Both the position numbers and the translations under genes were made by a program. 64,000 nt of DNA from Escherichia coli (GTDB taxonomy: Bacteria > Pseudomonadota > Gammaproteobacteria > Enterobacterales > Enterobacteriaceae). The DNA lies in assembly GCF_003019035.1 (NCBI RefSeq), contig NZ_CP027447.1, one strand, 5' to 3'. Shown piece after piece: positions 540 to 62,488 of the stretch (positions within the stretch are counted from its first letter, which is position 1; every line of letters starts with the position of its first letter). The notes beneath the pieces are model-generated. The model was not told the origin of the DNA. It saw nothing but the letters and a program-made list of their open reading frames with translations, and did not search any database.

Positions 540-775
540 GTCGCCAATCCTGGAAAGAGTATTAAGCGTAAATGATGCCAGAGCGCAAAGCGTTCAATGG
601 TTTGAGTAAGGGGCAAAACAGGCGGGATTTAGGGCGTTTATGCAAAAAATAGGTTCAGTTGCAGAACGTTTTGCGAACCATTTTCCAGTTCTGAGATTTA
701 GCCATTTAGCCTATAGAATCGCCCACCGCCTCTCTGTTAGTTTGCTAATAATTAAATTATTACAAAGGCGATCAA

Positions 776-2284
776 ATGGAATGGCAACAATTGCTTAACT
801 GCAACCGTCGGAAAGATAATCTAAAAAAAACCAGCATAGAATTTTTACATCCCCTTGCTAGCGGAAGACAAGAGATCGAGCGGGATTACGACCGATTACT
901 TTTTGCTGCGCCAACTCGTCGGCTTGCGGATAAAACACAAGTTTTCCCGTTAGATCAAAATGACAGTATACGGACGAGGCTGACTCATTCTCACGAAGTA
1001 GCAAACTTTGCTCGCGGAATAGGAATGAGACTCGCTTTCGAGATGAAGGAACACATCTTTGGCGAAATACCCACGGGGATTGTCGTTGAACGCGACGTTC
1101 CTGCTCTGTTAGCAGCGATCGGACTGGCACACGATCTCGGTAATCCACCATTTGGGCATCAAGGTGAAGCAGCGATGCGCGCATGGTTTAATAAAAATCT
1201 TCCAGGCCTTCTTGATAAAGAAGTAAACAGCGAAATATATAACGACTTTCTGCAATTTGATGGAAACTCACAAACCCTGCGCCTGGTTACCAAATTACAA
1301 ATTATTAACGATAACTTTGGTCTGAATCTGACCTATGCCACGCTGGCTGCACTGATCAAATATCCCCGAGCTTCATATTCATCGGACAAACATTGGAAAA
1401 AGCACGGTTTTTTCTATTCTGAGCATGAGGTTGTCATGGATGTCTGGCAACAAACGGGCCTTGGCGTACCAGGTAATGATGCCGGTTGCCGCCACCCATT
1501 TACCTGGATAATGGAAGCTTGCGACGATATTGCCTACTCTGTGCTGGACGCAGAAGATACCATCAAGAAAGGATTTGCCTCATACCAGGATTTGCGTGAT
1601 TTTTTGATGTCACAATCCGAGCCGAACGATGTAATTCAACATGTTATTGAAGCTGTAGAGGCCAAAAATGACGCCTGGAAAGAGCAAAGAAATGCACTTT
1701 CACCGGCGGAAATTAATGAACTCAGTATGCAAATGTTCAGAGTTTATGCCACCAGTGCATTGATTAATGCCGTAGTAGAAGCCTTTCGCGAACAATTACC
1801 CACGCTGATGCAGCGTGACTGCCCGTTCAAAGATTTAATCTCGCAAAGCAAAGGTCACGCTCTCTGCACTGCCCTGAAAATGTTCGACCGAACACGAGGC
1901 TACTTTCATCGTTCAGTCTTGCAACTGGAACTTAGGGGATCTAATTACATTACTAACTTGATGGATATGCTCTGGATTGGCATCCATGGACACAAAACAA
2001 AGAAAGAACGAGACGGAGAACGCGAGTCCGCGTCTACAGATAACCTTTTTGTTTCTCGTGAAGAATACCTGTCGGATACTCCCTTTGGTCGCTATGCTTA
2101 CGGGACAATCTCTGAAAATTATCGCCGTGTGTTTGAAGATCCCGCCAATACACTCCCTATTCTTTATAAAGAAGCGCAGTTGCTTACCGACGCAATCTCA
2201 GGCATGACGGATAGTTATTTAATGCGCCTTCACGATGAGCTAAAATCACTGTATGAATGTGGTCTCAAACACCCAACAGCTTGA
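776..2284 (+). CDS. Dgt-family HD-domain deoxynucleoside triphosphate triphosphohydrolase homologue (dGTPase-like), accessory copy
   Basis: 502-aa ORF with AAGG RBS about 9 nt upstream; motifs TRLTHSHEV, LAHDLGNPPFGH, TWIMEACDDIAYSVLDAED and C-terminal ISGMTDSY align with E. coli Dgt motifs as I recall them; local GC about 35-42%. Confidence 0.8.
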   Translation: MEWQQLLNCNRRKDNLKKTSIEFLHPLASGRQEIERDYDRLLFAAPTRRLADKTQVFPLDQNDSIRTRLTHSHEVANFARGIGMRLAFEMKEHIFGEIPTGIVVERDVPALLAAIGLAHDLGNPPFGHQGEAAMRAWFNKNLPGLLDKEVNSEIYNDFLQFDGNSQTLRLVTKLQIINDNFGLNLTYATLAALIKYPRASYSSDKHWKKHGFFYSEHEVVMDVWQQTGLGVPGNDAGCRHPFTWIMEACDDIAYSVLDAEDTIKKGFASYQDLRDFLMSQSEPNDVIQHVIEAVEAKNDAWKEQRNALSPAEINELSMQMFRVYATSALINAVVEAFREQLPTLMQRDCPFKDLISQSKGHALCTALKMFDRTRGYFHRSVLQLELRGSNYITNLMDMLWIGIHGHKTKKERDGERESASTDNLFVSREEYLSDTPFGRYAYGTISENYRRVFEDPANTLPILYKEAQLLTDAISGMTDSYLMRLHDELKSLYECGLKHPTA

Positions 2285-3005
2285 ACAGCGTATCGCCGAT
2301 TTTTTTACGCTTAGTGATGAGCATAAGAAAGCCAGAGTATTACTTGATACTCTGGCCTGTTCCTGTCCGGCCTGGATTTTTGGCGGGATGGTGCGTGACT
2401 TAGGCTTGTTTGGCGTCGAGGGATTCTCTTCAGACCTTGATATCGTCATCGGTCGCTCCCGTGAGGAACTCTTCCGGACATTGGCTGAACTGCCCGTCAA
2501 ACAACTGCGTTTTAATAAGTTCGGTGGGATCCGTTTTCGTTATCACGACTTCGAATTTGATATCTGGAACCTCAATGAGACATGGGCATTTCGGGAAAAA
2601 CTTATATTTTGTGAGGATGAATCAAGTCTGTTAAACACTACGCTGATGAGTTGGGATGCCGTGCTCTATGATCTACGTAGTGAAAAAATTATCAGTAAAG
2701 ATAATTATTTGACCGACTTAAATCGCAGACATCTTGAACTTGTTCTTCATACTAACCCCAATCCAAGCGGTTCGGTAACGAAAATTTTACGCACTATTTT
2801 TACTAAGCAGGTAAAGAGTTTAGGTCCGGAACTCTGTCATTTCTTGCACCATGAACTGACGAAAAAACGTTATGAAGTTTGGCATCATTACGATGTACTG
2901 CACTACCAGTCATCGTCATTTTCTCGTTCACAATTTAATGCGTTGATAAATTTACTGGCGCAACAATCACGCTTCGCTGATCTAAAATTATCAAATTACA
3001 AATAA
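2253..3005 (+). CDS. Pol-beta superfamily nucleotidyltransferase-like protein (tRNA-NT/poly(A) polymerase head-like motif), unknown function
   Basis: 250-aa ORF overlapping the upstream gene by 32 nt; motif WIFGGMVRDLGLFGVEGFSSDLDIVIG resembles the GGxVRD...DxD head motif of CCA-adding enzymes and PcnB; the rest has no recognisable body/tail domain. Confidence 0.65.
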   Translation: MNVVSNTQQLEQRIADFFTLSDEHKKARVLLDTLACSCPAWIFGGMVRDLGLFGVEGFSSDLDIVIGRSREELFRTLAELPVKQLRFNKFGGIRFRYHDFEFDIWNLNETWAFREKLIFCEDESSLLNTTLMSWDAVLYDLRSEKIISKDNYLTDLNRRHLELVLHTNPNPSGSVTKILRTIFTKQVKSLGPELCHFLHHELTKKRYEVWHHYDVLHYQSSSFSRSQFNALINLLAQQSRFADLKLSNYK

Positions 3006-3049
3006 CCATCCTCCACATACTTCCTGAACGATACCCGCCCCCCTGCTAT

Positions 3050-3074
3050 CGGCCTGGCATCATCGCGCAGGCCG
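3050..3074. other. 7-bp inverted repeat hairpin (CGGCCTG-N11-CAGGCCG) between the cassette 3' end and the cheZ stop
   Basis: Perfect inverted repeat read in sequence; no flanking T-run on either strand, so not a canonical intrinsic terminator. Confidence 0.3.
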
Positions 3075-3092
3075 AAGTTAAGGCAATACAAA

Positions 3093-3737
3093 TCAAAATC
3101 CAAGACTATCCAACAAATCGTCCACCTGATCCTGACTGGCTACCACACCGGCTTTGCTGGTATCGACCTGAGGTCCATTAAGCAAACTCTGGTTTTCACG
3201 TTTTGGACGCGACTCCTGTTCCGGGATGTTTTCCAACAGCACCATCAGCAACTGACGTTCGATCTCCTGAATGACATCCATCATCCGCTTAATGACCTGC
3301 CCGGTGAGATCCTGAAAATCCTGCGCCATCATGATTTCCAGCAGTTGCGCGTTAGTAAAGCTGGTATGCACGGGGACATCTACCAGAAATTGCCGCGTAT
3401 CTGTTACCAGTTCTCGGGCGTCGGCAAGGTCGATCGGATCGGCAAACCAGTCATCCCAACGTTGGGTTAACGCTTTTGCTGATTTCTCCATTTGATCCTG
3501 ATGCGGTTGTGACGCCTCAACACTGTTCAGCGCCCGCTCCGCAGCCTGGGCGGTCATCTGCACAACATAGTACAAACGATCGCGCGCATCGGGGATGGCT
3601 TCCGCCGCTTCGGCAATGGCCTGATCCAGCCCCAGCTCCCGCAAACTGTCGCGCAGCATACGCGTCAGGCTGCCGATGCGCGCAATGATATCGCCAGCTG
3701 AATGCTCGTCAGCAGGTTTGATTGATGGTTGCATCAT
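3093..3737 (-). CDS. cheZ: Chemotaxis phosphatase CheZ
   Basis: Translation [24 protein letters not shown]... to ...DDLLDSLGF matches E. coli CheZ; start taken at MMQP inside the longer track ORF. Confidence 0.95.
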
Positions 3738-3747
3738 AGTCGCATCC

Positions 3748-5201
<1,454 letters not shown>

Positions 5202-5203
5202 CG

Positions 5204-6064
5204 TTAATCCTTACTTAGCGCATACACCGTCTGACCACGCAGCGTGAAGCGGCGCTCAAGGTGGCTAAAGTTTTCAGAGTGACCCGCAAACAGCAATCCG
5301 TCGGGTTTAAGGAGCGGAACAAAGCGGCGCAAAATCTCCTGCTGGGTAGTTTGATCGAAGTAGATCATGACGTTACGACAGAAGATCGCATCAAACGGCC
5401 CCGGCACGGTGTACTGTTTCGCCAGTAAATTCAGCGGGGCAAAATCAACATAGTTCGCCAGCTCCTGACGCACGCGTACCAGCCCTTCATGCGGTCCCGT
5501 CCCTCGCATGAAATACCGTTGCAGTTGCTGCGGCGTCAGGTTTTTCAACTCTTCATGGCGATAAATACCGCTTCTGGCTTTTTCCAGCACTTCGGTGTCG
5601 ATATCGCTGGCAAACACTTTCCAGCGTCCGGGCACGGTGCCCAATGTGTCAGCCAGCGTCATCGCAATGCTGTACGGCTCTTCGCCGGTCGAAGCCGCCG
5701 CGCTCCATACGCGATACTCGCCAGAACGGCGACGTGCGTGATCCGCGAGCAGAGGAAAATGATGCGCCTCACGGAAAAATGCCGTCAGATTCGTGGTCAG
5801 CGAATTGATAAACGCCTGCCACTCACCGCTGTGCTGATTAGATTCCAGCAAGTTCAGGTAATGACCGAAATCCGTCAGTCCCAGCGAACGCAAACGACGA
5901 ACCAGTCGGTTGTAAACCATGTCGCGTTTATGGTCGGCCAGGACGATCCCGGCTCGTTGATAGATCAATTGACTTATCCGCCGAAAATGCGCGTCGGAAA
6001 GCGCCAGGCGCTCGGTCATCTGTAACAATAAAGACGTTTGCCCACAGGGCAGAGATGAAGTCAT
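5204..6064 (-). CDS. cheR: Chemotaxis methyltransferase CheR
   Basis: 286-aa ORF matching CheR. Confidence 0.95.
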
Positions 6065-6082
6065 AGCGCCTTCTCAATCACT

Positions 6083-7684
6083 TCAGGATACCACTGGCGC
6101 AATTTGTAACTGCGCCGACTCATGTCGTGCTACTTCATGCTCTTCAAGGGTAAATACCGCCACGCGCGACGAAAGATGGTCGGCCTGATTCGCCAGTTGT
6201 TCTGTTGCCACCGCCGCTTCTTCTACCAGGGAGGCGTTCTGCTGTGTCACCTGATCCATCTGGCTGACAGCCTGTGCAACCTGCTCAATCCCCCGCCGTT
6301 GTTCTTCCGAGGCCGAAGCAATTTCTCCCATAATGTCGTTCACGCGGGTCACCGAACTGACAATATCAGTCATGGTCGCGGCGGCGTTATTCACCAGTTT
6401 CGAACCCTGCTGGACACGATTGACTGACTCTTCGATCAGCCCTTTGATCTCTTTTGCTGCCTGGGCGCTACGGCTGGCAAGATTGCGCACTTCACCTGCC
6501 ACTACCGCAAAACCACGCCCCTGCTCTCCGGCGCGAGCCGCTTCCACTGCCGCATTCAGGGCCAGAATATTGGTCTGGAAAGCAATGCCGTCGATAACGC
6601 TGATAATGTCGCCAATTTTTTGCGAGCTGGTGGCGATCTCCTGCATGGTGTGAGTCATGGTACTGACCTGAACACCGCCCGCCTGTGCCGTTGTCGCGGC
6701 ATTTTTTGCCAGTTCCGACGCCTGGCGCGCGTTATCGGCGTTTTGCCCTACCGTGGCGGTTAATTGCTCCATACTGGCGGCCGTTTGTGCCAGCGATGCC
6801 GCCTGCTGTTCGGTACGACTTGAGAGATCGTTATTGCCTGCGACAATCTCCGCGATACCAATGTGCATCTCCTGGCTTCCCTTACGCACATCACTTACCG
6901 TCCCACGCAAAGCCTGCTGCATGGTCTTCAGACTGGCAAAAATGGCGGTGATCTCATTGCGACCATACACCGCAATCGGACGCGCCAGATTACCCGCAGC
7001 AATGCTGTCAAAATGGCTACCGATAATGGCCAGTGGTTGAACAATCATCTTGCGCGTCCACCACAGCGCACTGCTGATGTAGATCGCCGCAACAATAATC
7101 ATGCTGATAAACACCAGCGCCGAAATCTGATAGTTACGCTGGCTTTGCGCACTGGCAGCTTCCAGCACATGGTTGATCTCCAGCTGCCAGGCCTCAAAGT
7201 TAACGTCAAACGCATTCTGTGATTCCTGCACCGGCGCAGTGAGGAAATCCGAAAGTTGATTACTTTCAAGCCAGGTCGCCTGATGTTCGAGATCGTTGTG
7301 CCAGCGGGCAAAACTTTTCTCCGTCTCTTTTTGCAACGCCCTGACGTGCTCGTTGCCCGCAGTCATCGCCATAAAACTTTTAAACAGCGTGGTGGATTGC
7401 GTCAGACTGGCGCGCGCCGTCGTCATCAACGTTTTAATGTCATCCGCCGGATAGCTAAGCGCCGTCAGAGTGCCCGCTTTGTTCAGCGCGGTACTGGCCT
7501 GTAACATTACCGCCCGAGTTTGCGCTAAAGCCGCACGTTGCTGATTGCTCTGCTCGACCTGATTCAGTCGTTGCACATCGTCGCGAAATGCCCAAAAAGA
7601 CATGCCGTTACTGCCAATCTGCAAGATCCCGCAGAGAATCAAAATTAAAAACAGCGTGGTCGAAATTCGAATACGATTAAACAT
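6083..7684 (-). CDS. tap: Methyl-accepting chemotaxis protein IV (dipeptide/pyrimidine receptor) Tap
   Basis: ORF MFNRIRISTTLFLILILCG... with conserved MCP signalling domain; start at second Met of track ORF. Confidence 0.93.
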   Translation of the reverse strand: MFNRIRISTTLFLILILCGILQIGSNGMSFWAFRDDVQRLNQVEQSNQQRAALAQTRAVMLQASTALNKAGTLTALSYPADDIKTLMTTARASLTQSTTLFKSFMAMTAGNEHVRALQKETEKSFARWHNDLEHQATWLESNQLSDFLTAPVQESQNAFDVNFEAWQLEINHVLEAASAQSQRNYQISALVFISMIIVAAIYISSALWWTRKMIVQPLAIIGSHFDSIAAGNLARPIAVYGRNEITAIFASLKTMQQALRGTVSDVRKGSQEMHIGIAEIVAGNNDLSSRTEQQAASLAQTAASMEQLTATVGQNADNARQASELAKNAATTAQAGGVQVSTMTHTMQEIATSSQKIGDIISVIDGIAFQTNILALNAAVEAARAGEQGRGFAVVAGEVRNLASRSAQAAKEIKGLIEESVNRVQQGSKLVNNAAATMTDIVSSVTRVNDIMGEIASASEEQRRGIEQVAQAVSQMDQVTQQNASLVEEAAVATEQLANQADHLSSRVAVFTLEEHEVARHESAQLQIAPVVS

Positions 7685-7729
7685 CAACGCTCCCCATCAG
7701 GCGGCAATGACCGCGTTAGTAAATACTCG

Positions 7730-9391
7730 TCAAAATGTTTCCCAGTTTGGATCTTGTTCAGCAATTCGCAGTCGTGGCTGTGCCGGTGGTTGCTCACTGG
7801 CAGGACGGGATGGTGTTTGCGGTTTATTGGTGAGTGGGCTGGCTGTCAGACGGAACGCGGAAACCGCTTGCGTTAAACGACTCGCCTGTTCTTCCAGCGC
7901 AGCTGCGGCGGCAGCTGATTCCTGCACCAGCGATGCGTTCTGTTGCGTGACGCGATCCATTTCCGAAACCGCCAATGCGACTTGATCGATGCCACGGCTC
8001 TGTTCATCCGATGCTGATGCAATCTCGCCCATAATGTCAGTCACGCGGGTGACAGCATTGACGATATTGTTCATTGTTTCCCCGGCGCTTTCGACCAGCA
8101 CCGAACCGGTATCAACGCGCGAGACGGAGTCTTCAATGAGGGCTTTGATCTCTTTTGCCGCCTGGGCGCTGCGACTGGCAAGATTACGCACTTCGCCCGC
8201 CACCACGGCAAAACCACGGCCTTGTTCACCCGCTCGCGCGGCTTCAACCGCGGCATTCAGCGCGAGGATATTAGTCTGGAAGGCAATACCGTCGATAACG
8301 CTGATAATGTCGGCAATTTTCTTCGAACTATCGGCGATCTCATGCATCGTTTTCACTACGCCATCCACCACTTTGCCGCCGTGCTGGGCGGTGTCGGAGG
8401 CACTTTGCGCCAGTTGCGAGGCCTGGCGGGCGTTATCGGCGTTTTGCTTCACTGTCGCGGTGAGCTGCTCCATGCTGGCGGCAGTTTCTTCCAGCGCGGA
8501 TGCCTGCTGTTCAGTACGGGAGGAAAGATCGGTGTTGCCCGCCGCAATTTCACGGGTACCGGCATAGATGGCATCTGAACCTTCGCGCACATGAGTGACG
8601 GTGTCAGTCAAAGAGCGTTGCATATGTGAAACACTCTGCGCCAGGTCGCCCATTTCACTGCGCCCGTCAATGGTCAGGGTATTCGCCAGGTTACCACCGG
8701 CAATTTCGCGAATATGCGCAATAATTTTTGCCAGCGGTGTAAGCAACATACGGCGAATGCCGTACCACGCCACCAGCAGAATCAATATCACCACCAGCGC
8801 GATAACCGCCAGTTGCCACTGGGCAAATCGGTAATCATCTGCGTTGTCAGTGACGATATCGCGATACAGTTTTTCACTGCTGAGGGCGTACTGAGCAAAC
8901 GCTTCGCCCATTGCATTTTGCATTCCCTGGGTTGGCTGAGCGAAATAAGCTCCAGTATTGCCATAATCAAGATAATCAATCAGTTCAGTTAACGCTGTGT
9001 GATAGTTTTTATATTTTTCATCAATATTACGACTGGTAGCGACCATTTCAGGTAACGGTGCCATGCTTTTGAATTTTTTATAATGCGTCGCTGCCTGGGC
9101 CAATGTTTTCCTGGCGCTATCGAGCAATTCAACTTTGGCATTACTTTGCTGATTGGATGAATCCATCATCATCCGCACCGCTGAACGACTCAGGTTAATG
9201 CGCGTTTGCAGCATTAAATCCCATGTAGACGTCAGCTCGCCCTGCTGTTCCCGTAATTGATTGGAAACCACAAAGCTCTTCTGGCTATGGTGAAGGGAAG
9301 AAAAAAACAGACTGCCGGAAATAAGCTGTAACAGTGCGAATACCCCCAGCACCATTACCAACAGCGTGACTACGCGGATACGGTTAATCAT
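7730..9391 (-). CDS. tar: Methyl-accepting chemotaxis protein II (aspartate receptor) Tar
   Basis: [25 protein letters not shown]... ending NWETF pentapeptide; start at MINRIR within track ORF. Confidence 0.93.
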
Positions 9392-9422
9392 AAGGCACCT
9401 TCCTGAAAACAAGTTGATCTCG

Positions 9423-9449
9423 TTATCGGCAAGGAAGGGGGAAACTTTA
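9423..9449 (-). promoter_or_regulatory. Sigma-28 (FliA) class 3 promoter upstream of tar
   Basis: Minus strand reads TAAAGTTT-N11-GCCGATAA, an exact match to the sigma-28 consensus. Confidence 0.7.
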
Positions 9450-9476
9450 TTGCTGATGCCACCCGCCGCGAAATTG

Positions 9477-9507
9477 AAATAAAAAACCCGATGCGCAGAT
9501 CATCGGG
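9477..9507 (-). terminator. Intrinsic terminator downstream of cheW
   Basis: Hairpin CCCGATG...CATCGGG followed by a T-run on the minus strand. Confidence 0.6.
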
Positions 9508-9535
9508 TTCATTTCAATTGAGGAAATCGGGAGAA

Positions 9536-10039
9536 TTACGCCACTTCTGACGCCGCGCTATCTAACAGCGCCATCTCTTCGCTGTTCAGCAGTTTTTCGA
9601 TGTTCACCAGAATCAACATCCGGTCGCCCAGTGCGCCCAGTCCAGTGAGATATTCGGTTGAAAGCGTCACGGCAAATTCCGGTGCCGGACGAATTTGCTC
9701 CGCCGTCAATGAAAGCACGTCTGAAACGCCGTCAACCACGATGCCGACCACCCGCTGTCCGAGATTCAGGACGATAACTACCGTGTTGTCGTTATAGTCC
9801 ACATCCACCTGGCTGAACTTAATTCGTAAGTCAACAATCGGCACAATAACGCCGCGCAGATTCGTGACGCCTTTGATAAACGCTGGCGTGTTCGCAATCC
9901 GTGTCACCTGATCGTAGCCACGGATCTCCTGCACTTTCAGAATATCAATACCGTACTCTTCATCACCAAGGGTAAATACCAGAAATTCCTGGCCTGACGG
10001 CTCGCTGGCCAGCTTTGTTACATTCGTCATACCGGTCAT
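9536..10039 (-). CDS. cheW: Chemotaxis coupling protein CheW
   Basis: 167-aa [45 protein letters not shown]... matches CheW. Confidence 0.96.
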
Positions 10040-10059
10040 ATTGTTACCTTTTTACTCAT

Positions 10060-12951
<2,892 letters not shown>

Positions 12952-12955
<4 letters not shown>

Positions 12956-39544: not shown

Positions 39545-40960
39545 ATGGCTAGTATTTCAACGCTTGGGGTTGGGTCGGGGCTGGACTTAAGCAGCATCCT
39601 TGACAGTCTGGAAGCGGCAGAAAAATCTACCCTGACGCCGATATCAAAACAGCAAAGCTCTTATACCGCGAAACTGAGCGCCTACGGGACGCTGAAAAGC
39701 GCACTAGAGAGCTTCCAGACAGCCAACACAGCACTGAACAAAGCCGATTTATTTACCGCCACCTCAACTACCAGCAGTTCATCGGCTTTCAGCGCCACCA
39801 CCACGGGCAGCGCGATTGCCGGGAAATACACCATTAGCGTTAGCCAACTGGCGCAGGCACAGACGCTGACCACCCAAAATAGTCAAAAAGACAGTAAAGC
39901 TGCCATCGCCACCAGCGATAGCGTACTAACCATCCAGCAAGGTGGCGGTAAAGATCCGGTCACGATTGATATCAGCGCGGCTAACTCGTCACTTTCCGGC
40001 ATTCGCGATGCCATTAACAACGCCAAAGCTGGTGTCAGCGCCAGTATCATCCATGTGGGTAACGGCGAGTATCGTCTGTCCATCACTGCTAACGATACGG
40101 GCAGCGATAACGCTATGAAACTTAGCGTCAGCGGCGACAGCGCCCTGGAAAGTTTTATGGGTTACAACGGAACGTCGGGTGATAGCAGCAATGGCATGAT
40201 TGAAAGCGTCACTGCGCAAAACGCCAAACTGACAGTCAATAACGTTGAGATTGAAAACAGCAGTAACACTATCAGCGACGCGCTGGAAGATATCACCCTC
40301 AACCTGAATGACGTCACCACCGGTAATCAGACACTGACCATCAGTAAAGACACATCCAAAGCTGAAAATGCGGTTAAAGCGTGGGTGGATGCCTATAACT
40401 CATTGCAGGATACGTTCAGCAGCTTAACCAAATACACCGCTGTCGATGCCGGAGCAGAGAGTCAGGACTCCAGCAATGGCGCATTACTCGGTGACTCCAC
40501 ACTGCGTACCATCCAGACTCAGCTTAAAACCTTGCTCGCCAATACTCACAGCAGTTCAAACTATAAAACGCTGGCACAGATTGGCATTACCAGCGATGCC
40601 AGTACCGGCAAGCTGGAAATCGCGACCGACAAACTGCAAACGGCGCTAAAAAAAGATGCCGCTGGCATCAGTGAAATGTTTATAGGTGACGGTAAAAGTA
40701 CAGGGGTAACCACCGGCATTAGTAGCAACCTAACCAGTTGGCTCTCTTCCACCGGGATAATCCAGGCCGCAAAAGATGGCGTCAGCAAAACGCTGAATAA
40801 TTTGACCGACCAGTACAACGCAGCCAGTGAGCGTATCGATACCTTAATGACGCGCTATAAAGCCCAGTTCACCCAATTAGATGTGTTAATGAACTCGCTT
40901 AACTCCACCAGTAGCTATCTGACACAGCAATTCGACACATCAAATAGCAACTCGAAATAA
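39545..40960 (+). CDS. fliD: Flagellar filament cap protein FliD
   Basis: 471-aa ORF MASISTLGVGSGLDLSSILDSLEAAEKSTLTPIS...; conserved termini, divergent from K-12 FliD internally. Confidence 0.94.
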   Translation: MASISTLGVGSGLDLSSILDSLEAAEKSTLTPISKQQSSYTAKLSAYGTLKSALESFQTANTALNKADLFTATSTTSSSSAFSATTTGSAIAGKYTISVSQLAQAQTLTTQNSQKDSKAAIATSDSVLTIQQGGGKDPVTIDISAANSSLSGIRDAINNAKAGVSASIIHVGNGEYRLSITANDTGSDNAMKLSVSGDSALESFMGYNGTSGDSSNGMIESVTAQNAKLTVNNVEIENSSNTISDALEDITLNLNDVTTGNQTLTISKDTSKAENAVKAWVDAYNSLQDTFSSLTKYTAVDAGAESQDSSNGALLGDSTLRTIQTQLKTLLANTHSSSNYKTLAQIGITSDASTGKLEIATDKLQTALKKDAAGISEMFIGDGKSTGVTTGISSNLTSWLSSTGIIQAAKDGVSKTLNNLTDQYNAASERIDTLMTRYKAQFTQLDVLMNSLNSTSSYLTQQFDTSNSNSK

Positions 40961-43949: not shown

Positions 43950-45155
43950 ATGTCATGGCAGCAATTCAAACACGCCTGGTTGATTAAATTCTGGGCACCC
44001 ATCCCTGCGGTCATCGCGGCGGGTATTCTCTCCACTTACTATTTTGGCATTACTGGCACCTTTTGGGCTGTCACGGGTGAATTTACCCGTTGGGGCGGTC
44101 AGCTCCTGCAGCTGTTTGGCGTCCATGCTGAAGAGTGGGGTTATTTTAAAATTATCCATCTGGAAGGATCGCCATTAACCCGCATCGACGGGATGATGAT
44201 CCTCGGTATGTTTGGCGGCTGCTTTGCCGCAGCGCTGTGGGCCAACAATGTCAAACTACGCATGCCGCGCAGCCGTATCCGCATTATGCAGGCCATCATT
44301 GGCGGCATTATCGCCGGTTTTGGCGCGCGTCTGGCAATGGGCTGTAACCTGGCGGCGTTCTTTACCGGCATTCCTCAGTTCTCGCTGCATGCCTGGTTCT
44401 TTGCCATCGCCACTGCCATTGGTTCATGGTTTGGCGCGCGCTTTACCCTGCTGCCCATCTTCCGTATTCCCGTGAAAATGCAGAAAGTTTCTGCCGCCTC
44501 GCCGCTGACGCAAAAACCGGATCAGGCGCGGCGTCGTTTTCGTCTCGGGATGCTGGTCTTTTTCGGCATGCTGGGCTGGGCGCTGCTGACGGCGATGAAC
44601 CAGCCCAAACTGGGGCTGGCAATGCTGTTTGGCGTCGGCTTTGGTTTACTGATTGAACGTGCGCAAATCTGCTTTACTTCGGCGTTCCGCGATATGTGGA
44701 TCACCGGACGTACCCATATGGCGAAAGCAATCATTATCGGTATGGCGGTAAGTGCCATCGGGATCTTCAGTTACGTACAGTTAGGCGTTGAACCCAAAAT
44801 CATGTGGGCAGGACCAAACGCGGTAATTGGTGGTTTACTGTTTGGTTTTGGCATCGTGCTGGCAGGCGGCTGCGAAACCGGCTGGATGTACCGCGCGGTA
44901 GAAGGCCAGGTGCACTACTGGTGGGTCGGTCTGGGCAACGTGATCGGCTCAACGATTCTGGCGTATTACTGGGATGATTTCGCTCCGGCGCTGGCCACCG
45001 ACTGGGACAAAATCAACCTGCTAAAAACCTTTGGTCCGATGGGTGGCCTGCTGGTGACATATTTGCTGTTGTTTGCAGCTCTAATGTTGATTATCGGCTG
45101 GGAAAAACGCTTCTTCCGCCGTGCGGCACCGCAGACTGCTAAGGAGATCGCATGA
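43950..45155 (+). CDS. yedE: Putative selenium/sulfur-compound transporter YedE
   Basis: 401-aa polytopic membrane ORF at the yedE position. Confidence 0.9.
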   Translation: MSWQQFKHAWLIKFWAPIPAVIAAGILSTYYFGITGTFWAVTGEFTRWGGQLLQLFGVHAEEWGYFKIIHLEGSPLTRIDGMMILGMFGGCFAAALWANNVKLRMPRSRIRIMQAIIGGIIAGFGARLAMGCNLAAFFTGIPQFSLHAWFFAIATAIGSWFGARFTLLPIFRIPVKMQKVSAASPLTQKPDQARRRFRLGMLVFFGMLGWALLTAMNQPKLGLAMLFGVGFGLLIERAQICFTSAFRDMWITGRTHMAKAIIIGMAVSAIGIFSYVQLGVEPKIMWAGPNAVIGGLLFGFGIVLAGGCETGWMYRAVEGQVHYWWVGLGNVIGSTILAYYWDDFAPALATDWDKINLLKTFGPMGGLLVTYLLLFAALMLIIGWEKRFFRRAAPQTAKEIA

Positions 45156-53983: not shown

Positions 53984-54087
53984 CGTCAGAGGTAGCACCG
54001 TAATCCGCGTCTTTTCCCCGCTTTGTTGCGCTCAAGACGCAGGATAATTAGCCGATAAGCAGTAGCGACACAGGAAGACCGCAACAC

Positions 54088-55561: not shown

Positions 55562-55971
55562 GTGACATGAATAATCCGGCCGATGACAACAACGGCGCAA
55601 TGGACGATCTGTGGGCTGAAGCGTTGAGCGAACAAAAATCAACCAGTGGCAAAAGCGCTGCCGACGCGGTGTTCCAGCAATTTGGCGGTGGTGATGTCAG
55701 CGGAACGTTGCAGGATATCGACCTGATTATGGATATTCCGGTCAAGCTGACCGTCGAGCTGGGCCGCACACGAATGACCATCAAAGAGTTATTGCGTCTG
55801 ACGCAAGGATCAGTCGTGGCGCTGGACGGTCTGGCGGGCGAACCGCTGGATATTCTGATCAACGGTTATTTAATTGCTCAGGGCGAAGTTGTCGTAGTCG
55901 CTGATAAATATGGCGTGCGGATCACCGATATCATTACTCCGTCTGAGCGGATGCGCCGCCTGAGCCGTTAG
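55558..55971 (+). CDS. fliN: Flagellar motor switch protein FliN
   Basis: 137-aa ORF MSDMNNPADDNNGAMDDLWAEALSEQKSTSGKSAADAVFQQF... Confidence 0.96.
   Translation: MSDMNNPADDNNGAMDDLWAEALSEQKSTSGKSAADAVFQQFGGGDVSGTLQDIDLIMDIPVKLTVELGRTRMTIKELLRLTQGSVVALDGLAGEPLDILINGYLIAQGEVVVVADKYGVRITDIITPSERMRRLSR

Positions 55972-59963: not shown

Positions 59964-62488
<2,525 letters not shown>

Follow-up and report, generated by a model that had tools for sequence, protein, structure and literature searches.

How is the chemotaxis operon tar-tap-cheRBYZ transcribed in this strain? The question is raised by a short sequence at 9423-9449, on the minus strand of the 64,000-nt stretch of Escherichia coli DNA analysed here (the window). 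This sequence is exactly TAAAGTTTCCCCCTTCCTTGCCGATAA, that is, TAAAGTTT-N11-GCCGATAA with 0 mismatches, or 16/16 positions of the FliA (σ28) consensus, and it has the two elements and the 11-nt spacer of a σ28 class 3 promoter. It is on the same strand as the operon, with 31 nt between the end of its -10 element and the ATG of tar, and FliA itself is encoded within the window. The sequence is almost certainly the class 3 flagellar promoter of tar-tap-cheRBYZ. The assignment is supported here by the match itself and its excess over chance, by the neighbouring genes, by identity with K-12, and by conservation across genera. The tar σ28 promoter is already known from ChIP-seq, mutagenesis, and cryo-EM in K-12; it is a textbook case and has little weight as a discovery.

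The gene order of the segment, which extends from flhB to yedI, was transferred from the annotation of near-identical genomes; the first 6 kb of the window are 100% identical to strain SCU-301 (NZ_CP051751.1). After flhD come uspC, otsAB, and araHGF, followed later by fliZ, fliA, fliC, fliD, fliE, fliF-K, fliL-R, and yedI. The region around the tar site was matched in 5,385 of 5,426 complete E. coli genomes. The coordinates of the genes, promoter elements, and σ28 sites are collected in Table 1.

Table 1. Genes, promoter elements, and FliA (σ28) sites of the window, in order of position
Feature	Position	Strand	Basis or remark
flhB	ends at 539	-	transferred annotation
operon tar, tap, cheR, cheB, cheY, cheZ	3093..9391	-	RefSeq annotation of near-identical genomes
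Shine-Dalgarno region AGGAAGGTG of tar, in 24-nt 5' UTR (9392-9415)	9396..9404	-	sequence reading
predicted transcription start of tar, +1 = A, transcript beginning AAC	9415	-	from cryo-EM tarp numbering on identical sequence
-10 element GCCGATAA of tar promoter	9423..9430	-	exact match
11-nt spacer CCCCCTTCCTT of tar promoter	9431..9441	-	one C-to-T difference from K-12
-35 element TAAAGTTT of tar promoter	9442..9449	-	exact match
putative intrinsic terminator of motAB-cheAW, 10-bp stem and T run	9474..9510	-	terminator scan; function assigned from pattern
cheW-cheA-motB-motA	9536-13839	-	transferred annotation
flhC-flhD	13966-14897	-	transferred annotation
motAB-cheAW σ28 promoter TAAACTTT-N11-GCCGATAT, inside flhC 3' end	14009..14035	-	2 mismatches, 20.07 bits
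weak FliA site TGAAATTG-N11-GCCGATAA, inside otsA, antisense	17241..17267	+	3 mismatches
fliA (σ28 gene), intact, product WP_001087467.1	36980..37699	-	annotation of 100%-identical SCU-301
fliAZ-tcyJ σ28 promoter TGCAGAAA-N11-GCCGATAA	37725..37751	-	K-12 site, FAT score 91 (PMC4183435)
fliC σ28 promoter TAAAGGTT-N11-GACGATAA	39376..39402	-	2 mismatches
fliDST σ28 promoter TAAACTTT-N11-GCCGATAA	39476..39502	+	1 mismatch, 21.57 bits
fliD	39545-40960	+	transferred annotation
fliLMNOPQR σ28 promoter TCAAGACG-N11-GCCGATAA	54032..54058	+	15.43 bits; K-12 FAT score 18 (PMC4183435)

FliA sites of the window

A perfect 16/16 match to the consensus is expected about 3e-5 times by chance in 64 kb read on both strands. 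When up to 3 mismatches are allowed, the window contains 6 matches against 0.56 expected, a number that was attained in 0 of 100 shuffles. Besides the consensus, a weight matrix was used, trained on 19 K-12 FliA sites that have FAT scores >4 and that all lie outside the region covered by the window. These sites were taken from the 52 FliA sites of a K-12 ChIP-seq study (PMC4183435), and the spacer columns were left out of the matrix. Among 128,000 positions on both strands, the tar site has the top score, 24.86 bits, with fliD second and motA third; a score of 24 bits was attained in 0 of 200 shuffles. Seven matches in the window reach at least 15 bits (0.57 expected) and three reach at least 20 bits (0.03 expected). 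Scanning with spacers of 10 or 12 nt yielded no additional convincing sites, the best being shifted versions of known sites or intragenic matches of 15-18 bits.

All seven FliA sites that K-12 ChIP-seq places in this segment (tar, motA, otsA, fliA, fliC, fliD, and fliL) are present at the orthologous places. The 28-mers of fliA (37724-37751), motA (14008-14035), fliL (54032-54059), and otsA (17241-17268) are identical to those in the K-12 table (PMC4183435), and that of tar has one substitution, in the spacer. At fliC, the -35 and -10 elements are those of the K-12 site (FAT score 110, PMC4183435) while the spacer differs. At fliD, the spacer also differs, and the -10 element is GCCGATAA here rather than the ACCGATAA of K-12, making the site closer to consensus in the window. 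The fliC-fliD intergenic region as a whole is about 86% identical to that of K-12 and has a 19-bp deletion, yet the σ28 elements of both promoters are kept. The flagellin allele next to it (fliC, 38019-39299, minus strand) encodes 426 aa, compared with 498 aa in K-12. The motA site has a FAT score of 101 in K-12, and the site reported there as "(otsA)" has a FAT score of 2 and no expression effect (PMC4183435). The tar site and its kin thus serve as an internal control: a matrix trained on sites elsewhere in the genome finds each of the seven FliA sites published for this segment.

A preliminary description of this DNA, made from the sequence, had reported an exact FliA consensus at 9423-9449 on the minus strand, and it had proposed a matrix scan of the whole window for σ28 sites. 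The match is indeed perfect, and tar ranks first in that scan. The related sites it gave for fliC and fliD are also there (2 mismatches and 1 mismatch), as is the GCCGATAA element upstream of fliA, at 37725-37732 on the minus strand. This last element lies 25 nt upstream of the fliA GTG at 37699 and is paired with a poor -35 sequence, TGCAGAAA. The gene identities were right as well, with tar (7730-9391, minus strand) directly downstream of the promoter and with fliC, fliD, and fliA as placed. The list of sites was correct for tar, fliC, fliD, and fliA, but it overlooked the published K-12 sites of motA, fliL, and otsA.

Other matches in the window, each outside the K-12 ChIP-seq list, were also seen. 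The fourth best score in the window, 17.6 bits, belongs to TAAATATG-N11-ACCGATAT at 55905-55932 (plus strand) inside fliN. Its -10 element ends about 44 nt before fliO, and the match is identical in K-12; it could be inert, or it could drive fliOPQR weakly from within the operon. Three more matches, at 36643-36670 (plus strand), 45090-45117 (minus strand), and 62258-62285 (minus strand), score 14-15.6 bits; they are in fliZ (antisense), yedE, and dgcQ, respectively, and these too are identical in K-12. Finally, TAACGTAT-N11-GCCGATAC at 31595-31622 (plus strand), at the start of yecU and upstream of yecF, scores 12.2 bits; the K-12 version ends in GCCGATAT and scores 16.3 bits. The matrix score is a poor predictor of occupancy: fliC and fliA, with strong ChIP signals, score only 13.8 and 13.4 bits, whereas the fliN match scores 17.6 bits and has no peak. 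For this reason, no new promoters were called on score alone.

The tar promoter and its K-12 counterpart

In K-12, the tar promoter (tarp) has the same -35 and -10 elements, the same spacer length, and the same sequence down to the ATG as the promoter in the window. Gene order and the upstream cheW terminator are also shared, and the 328-bp neighbourhood is 99.7% identical. The spacers, CCCCCTTCCTT in the window and CCCCCCTCCTT in K-12, differ at a single base. The K-12 site is bound by FliA, with a ChIP-seq FAT score of 57 (Fitzgerald et al. 2014, PMC4183435), and tar expression drops from 251 in the wild type to 0 in a fliA deletion; the same study lists tar-tap-cheRBYZ as a FliA-dependent operon. 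Although tar is the sole site with 0 mismatches among the 52 K-12 sites, a perfect consensus does not make it the strongest one, as the FAT scores of fliC (110), motA (101), tsr (94), and fliA (91) are all above that of tar. Other promoters of the FliA regulon, including those of fliC, fliD, motA, tsr, flgM, and yhjH, have the same two-part motif and 11-nt spacer as tar.

The transcription start can be placed from a cryo-EM study of σ28, in which the scaffold was the tar promoter (-39 to +15) and ATP and CTP were supplied to make an AAC RNA from +1. In that work, the tar -10 element is numbered C-13 G-12 ATAA N-7, and mutation of -13C or -12G greatly reduces tarp activity. This numbering puts +1 at 8 nt past the last A of GCCGATAA, which would correspond to A9415 in the window. 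The distance falls within the 7-10 nt downstream of the -10 element that the preliminary description had set as the test of its reading, and for the identical K-12 promoter that test is passed. The MotR sRNA of K-12 gives a second reference point, its annotated 5' end being 7 nt past the motA -10 element. FliA occupancy, fliA dependence, and the transcription start in the present strain are thus probably those of the identical K-12 sequence.

Taken together, RNA polymerase with σ28 would recognise TAAAGTTT at -35 and GCCGATAA at -10, held 11 nt apart, and transcription would begin 8 nt beyond the latter, giving an mRNA with a 24-nt leader that carries a strong Shine-Dalgarno sequence. The predicted motAB-cheAW terminator, located after cheW with its end about 25 nt short of the tar -35 element, would isolate the tar promoter from the upstream operon. 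With tar isolated in this way, its expression would depend on free FliA. In the established flagellar hierarchy, FliA is free only once FlhDC has activated fliA and the anti-sigma factor FlgM has left through the finished hook-basal body.

A different possibility is that tar is transcribed mainly from a σ70 promoter, or by read-through from motAB-cheAW, and that the σ28 site is secondary. Dual control of this kind is known within the regulon: in K-12, fliA, fliD, and fliL are also served by FlhDC-dependent σ70 promoters, and deletion of fliA has little effect on them. The tar operon differs in being purely FliA-dependent. A scan of the minus strand found no σ70-like promoter in the cheW-tar interval, and the predicted terminator after cheW speaks against read-through. 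In addition, no FlhDC peak has been reported at tar in K-12, and tar expression there falls to 0 without fliA (PMC4183435). Transcription of tar mainly by σ70 or by read-through is therefore very unlikely.

Conservation of the promoter and the opposite strand

Conservation within the species was considered as evidence and rejected. The cheW-tar intergenic region is 97.9-100% identical among 5,373 E. coli genomes, and this is too little divergence to tell which bases are constrained. The footprint was therefore taken from other genera. Loci were picked by their Tar N-terminus alone (M[IFL]NRIRVVT, back-translated), so that the promoter played no part in the choice, using one genome per species, and the 220 nt upstream of each were scanned. 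The sample comprises 102 loci from about 100 species and some 20 enterobacterial genera, among them Salmonella, Citrobacter, Enterobacter, Kluyvera, Kosakonia, Buttiauxella, and Cedecea. One locus (L053, from an "Eubacterium" MAG) was left out as a chance match to the search pattern. Another, L107, is labelled "Chryseobacterium sp. 18061" and bears an enterobacterial tar locus; this assembly is probably mislabelled or contaminated.

Across the 102 loci, the two elements are conserved while the adjoining non-coding bases drift. The -10 element GCCGATAA is invariant (102/102; 2.0 bits per position). The -35 element averages 1.82 bits per position: TAAAGTT together with an 11-nt spacer is found in 98 loci, with C as the eighth base in 66, T in 19, and A in 13, and two loci carry TTAAGTTT in place of TAAAGTT. 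A spacer length of 11 is kept in every orthologue but one (L064, Enterobacter sp. EA-1), in which it is 13 nt. The spacer sequence, on the other hand, takes 75 distinct forms, with a mean of 0.44 bits per position and only the final T, before the -10 element, conserved; further upstream of the -35 element, the mean is 0.36 bits per position. Because the spacer sequence is unconserved across genera, the single-base difference between the window and K-12 is not expected to have a functional effect. The distance from the -10 element to the ATG is 31 nt in 95 of the 102 loci, and the C after the -10 element, the AA at the predicted start, and an A.GGTG Shine-Dalgarno core are also conserved. The full 16/16 promoter occurs in Escherichia, Kluyvera, Pseudocitrobacter, Buttiauxella, and Intestinirhabdus. 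In Salmonella, a genome scan gave TAAAGTTA-N11-GCCGATAA (L030, L038); a preprint on Salmonella FliA (10.1101/2020.09.09.289983) contained nothing usable on the cheM/tar motif. The tar footprint neatly illustrates how a promoter can have two fixed elements at a fixed spacing and yet a free spacer sequence.

This pattern also bears on whether the tar match could be a chance occurrence with no promoter function. Motif matches alone can be inert, since the FliA-like sequences of 14-17.6 bits in fliN, fliZ (antisense), yedE, and dgcQ are shared unchanged with K-12, where none of them has a ChIP-seq peak. For tar, however, the number of perfect matches expected by chance is minute and its score was reached by no shuffle, the elements have been kept over about 20 genera around a drifting spacer and flanks, and the K-12 site is both bound by FliA and fliA-dependent (PMC4183435). 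The conservation pattern and the K-12 data effectively refute a chance origin, the probability of which is negligible.

The plus strand of the same region holds a candidate small RNA. Rfam RF00116 (C0465 RNA) gives a full-length match at 9439-9516 on that strand, with 111.6 bits against a gathering score of 40. The match covers the tar -35 element but not the -10 element, and it also overlaps the hairpin of the cheW terminator. Among 15 genomes scanned, C0465 was detected in three Escherichia loci only and in 0 of 12 loci of other genera. Overexpression of C0465 has been reported to produce no motility, biofilm, or fimbriae phenotype (PMC4606813), and no such gene is listed in the RefSeq annotation of K-12 as it now stands. 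If C0465 were a real, Escherichia-specific antisense RNA that starts in the spacer and ends at a bidirectional cheW hairpin, it might modulate the access of σ28 to the -35 element, a proposal that we regard as highly doubtful. Such modulation could come about through C0465 transcription itself or through pairing with read-through cheW-tar RNA; the Rfam match is the one observation behind it.

That the conserved sequence serves C0465 instead of tar transcription is a further reading, to which the strength of the full-length Rfam match lends some appeal, but it is next to impossible: the -10 element, the most conserved block, is outside C0465, which thus cannot account for the conservation pattern, the family is missing from the 12 non-Escherichia loci in which the promoter is still conserved, the sequence upstream of the -35 element averages only 0.36 bits per position, and both the overexpression result (PMC4606813) and the K-12 RefSeq annotation count against it.

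The cassette between flhB and cheZ

The region downstream of the tar operon differs from K-12 by an insert. The DNA absent from K-12 extends from about 644 to 3080 (2.4 kb) and takes the place of 87 bp of K-12 intergenic sequence. A cassette had been described here before, at 540-3092; the insert is real, but these bounds are too wide, as 540-643 is the native region upstream of flhB. The accompanying remark that 540-3092 contains no FliA-type promoter is borne out by comparison of matrix scores with shuffles: the best score in this interval, 8.59 bits, is lower than the mean best score of shuffled cassettes (9.79 bits, sd 2.63), and 64% of the shuffles do at least as well. The cassette therefore has no FliA-type promoter and is not connected by way of FliA to the late flagellar regulon. 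As for class 2 control, the published FlhDC motif is described as degenerate and low-scoring. By homology, the K-12 FlhDC ChIP peak for flhBAE would fall at about 603 of the window, in the retained part. Since the insert starts just past this mapped position, flhB seems to have kept its class 2 promoter.

The first open reading frame of the cassette (776-2284, plus strand) is dgt, which matches the PADLOC anti-phage dGTPase model with E = 9e-71 and also has a Pfam HD domain. The second (2253-3005, plus strand; 250 aa) has no match in PADLOC or Pfam. Of 5,426 complete E. coli genomes, 106 carry the cassette at this location.

A further difference was noted in the closely related strain FDAARGOS_497 (L001 28130-32000, L002 1-10094), in which an island lies between yecA and the leuZ-cysT-glyW tRNA genes. 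It is missing from the window, which at about 27600-27700 is colinear with K-12. In FDAARGOS_497, the island contains genes for type I restriction-modification as well as a DUF262 gene and an IS3 element.
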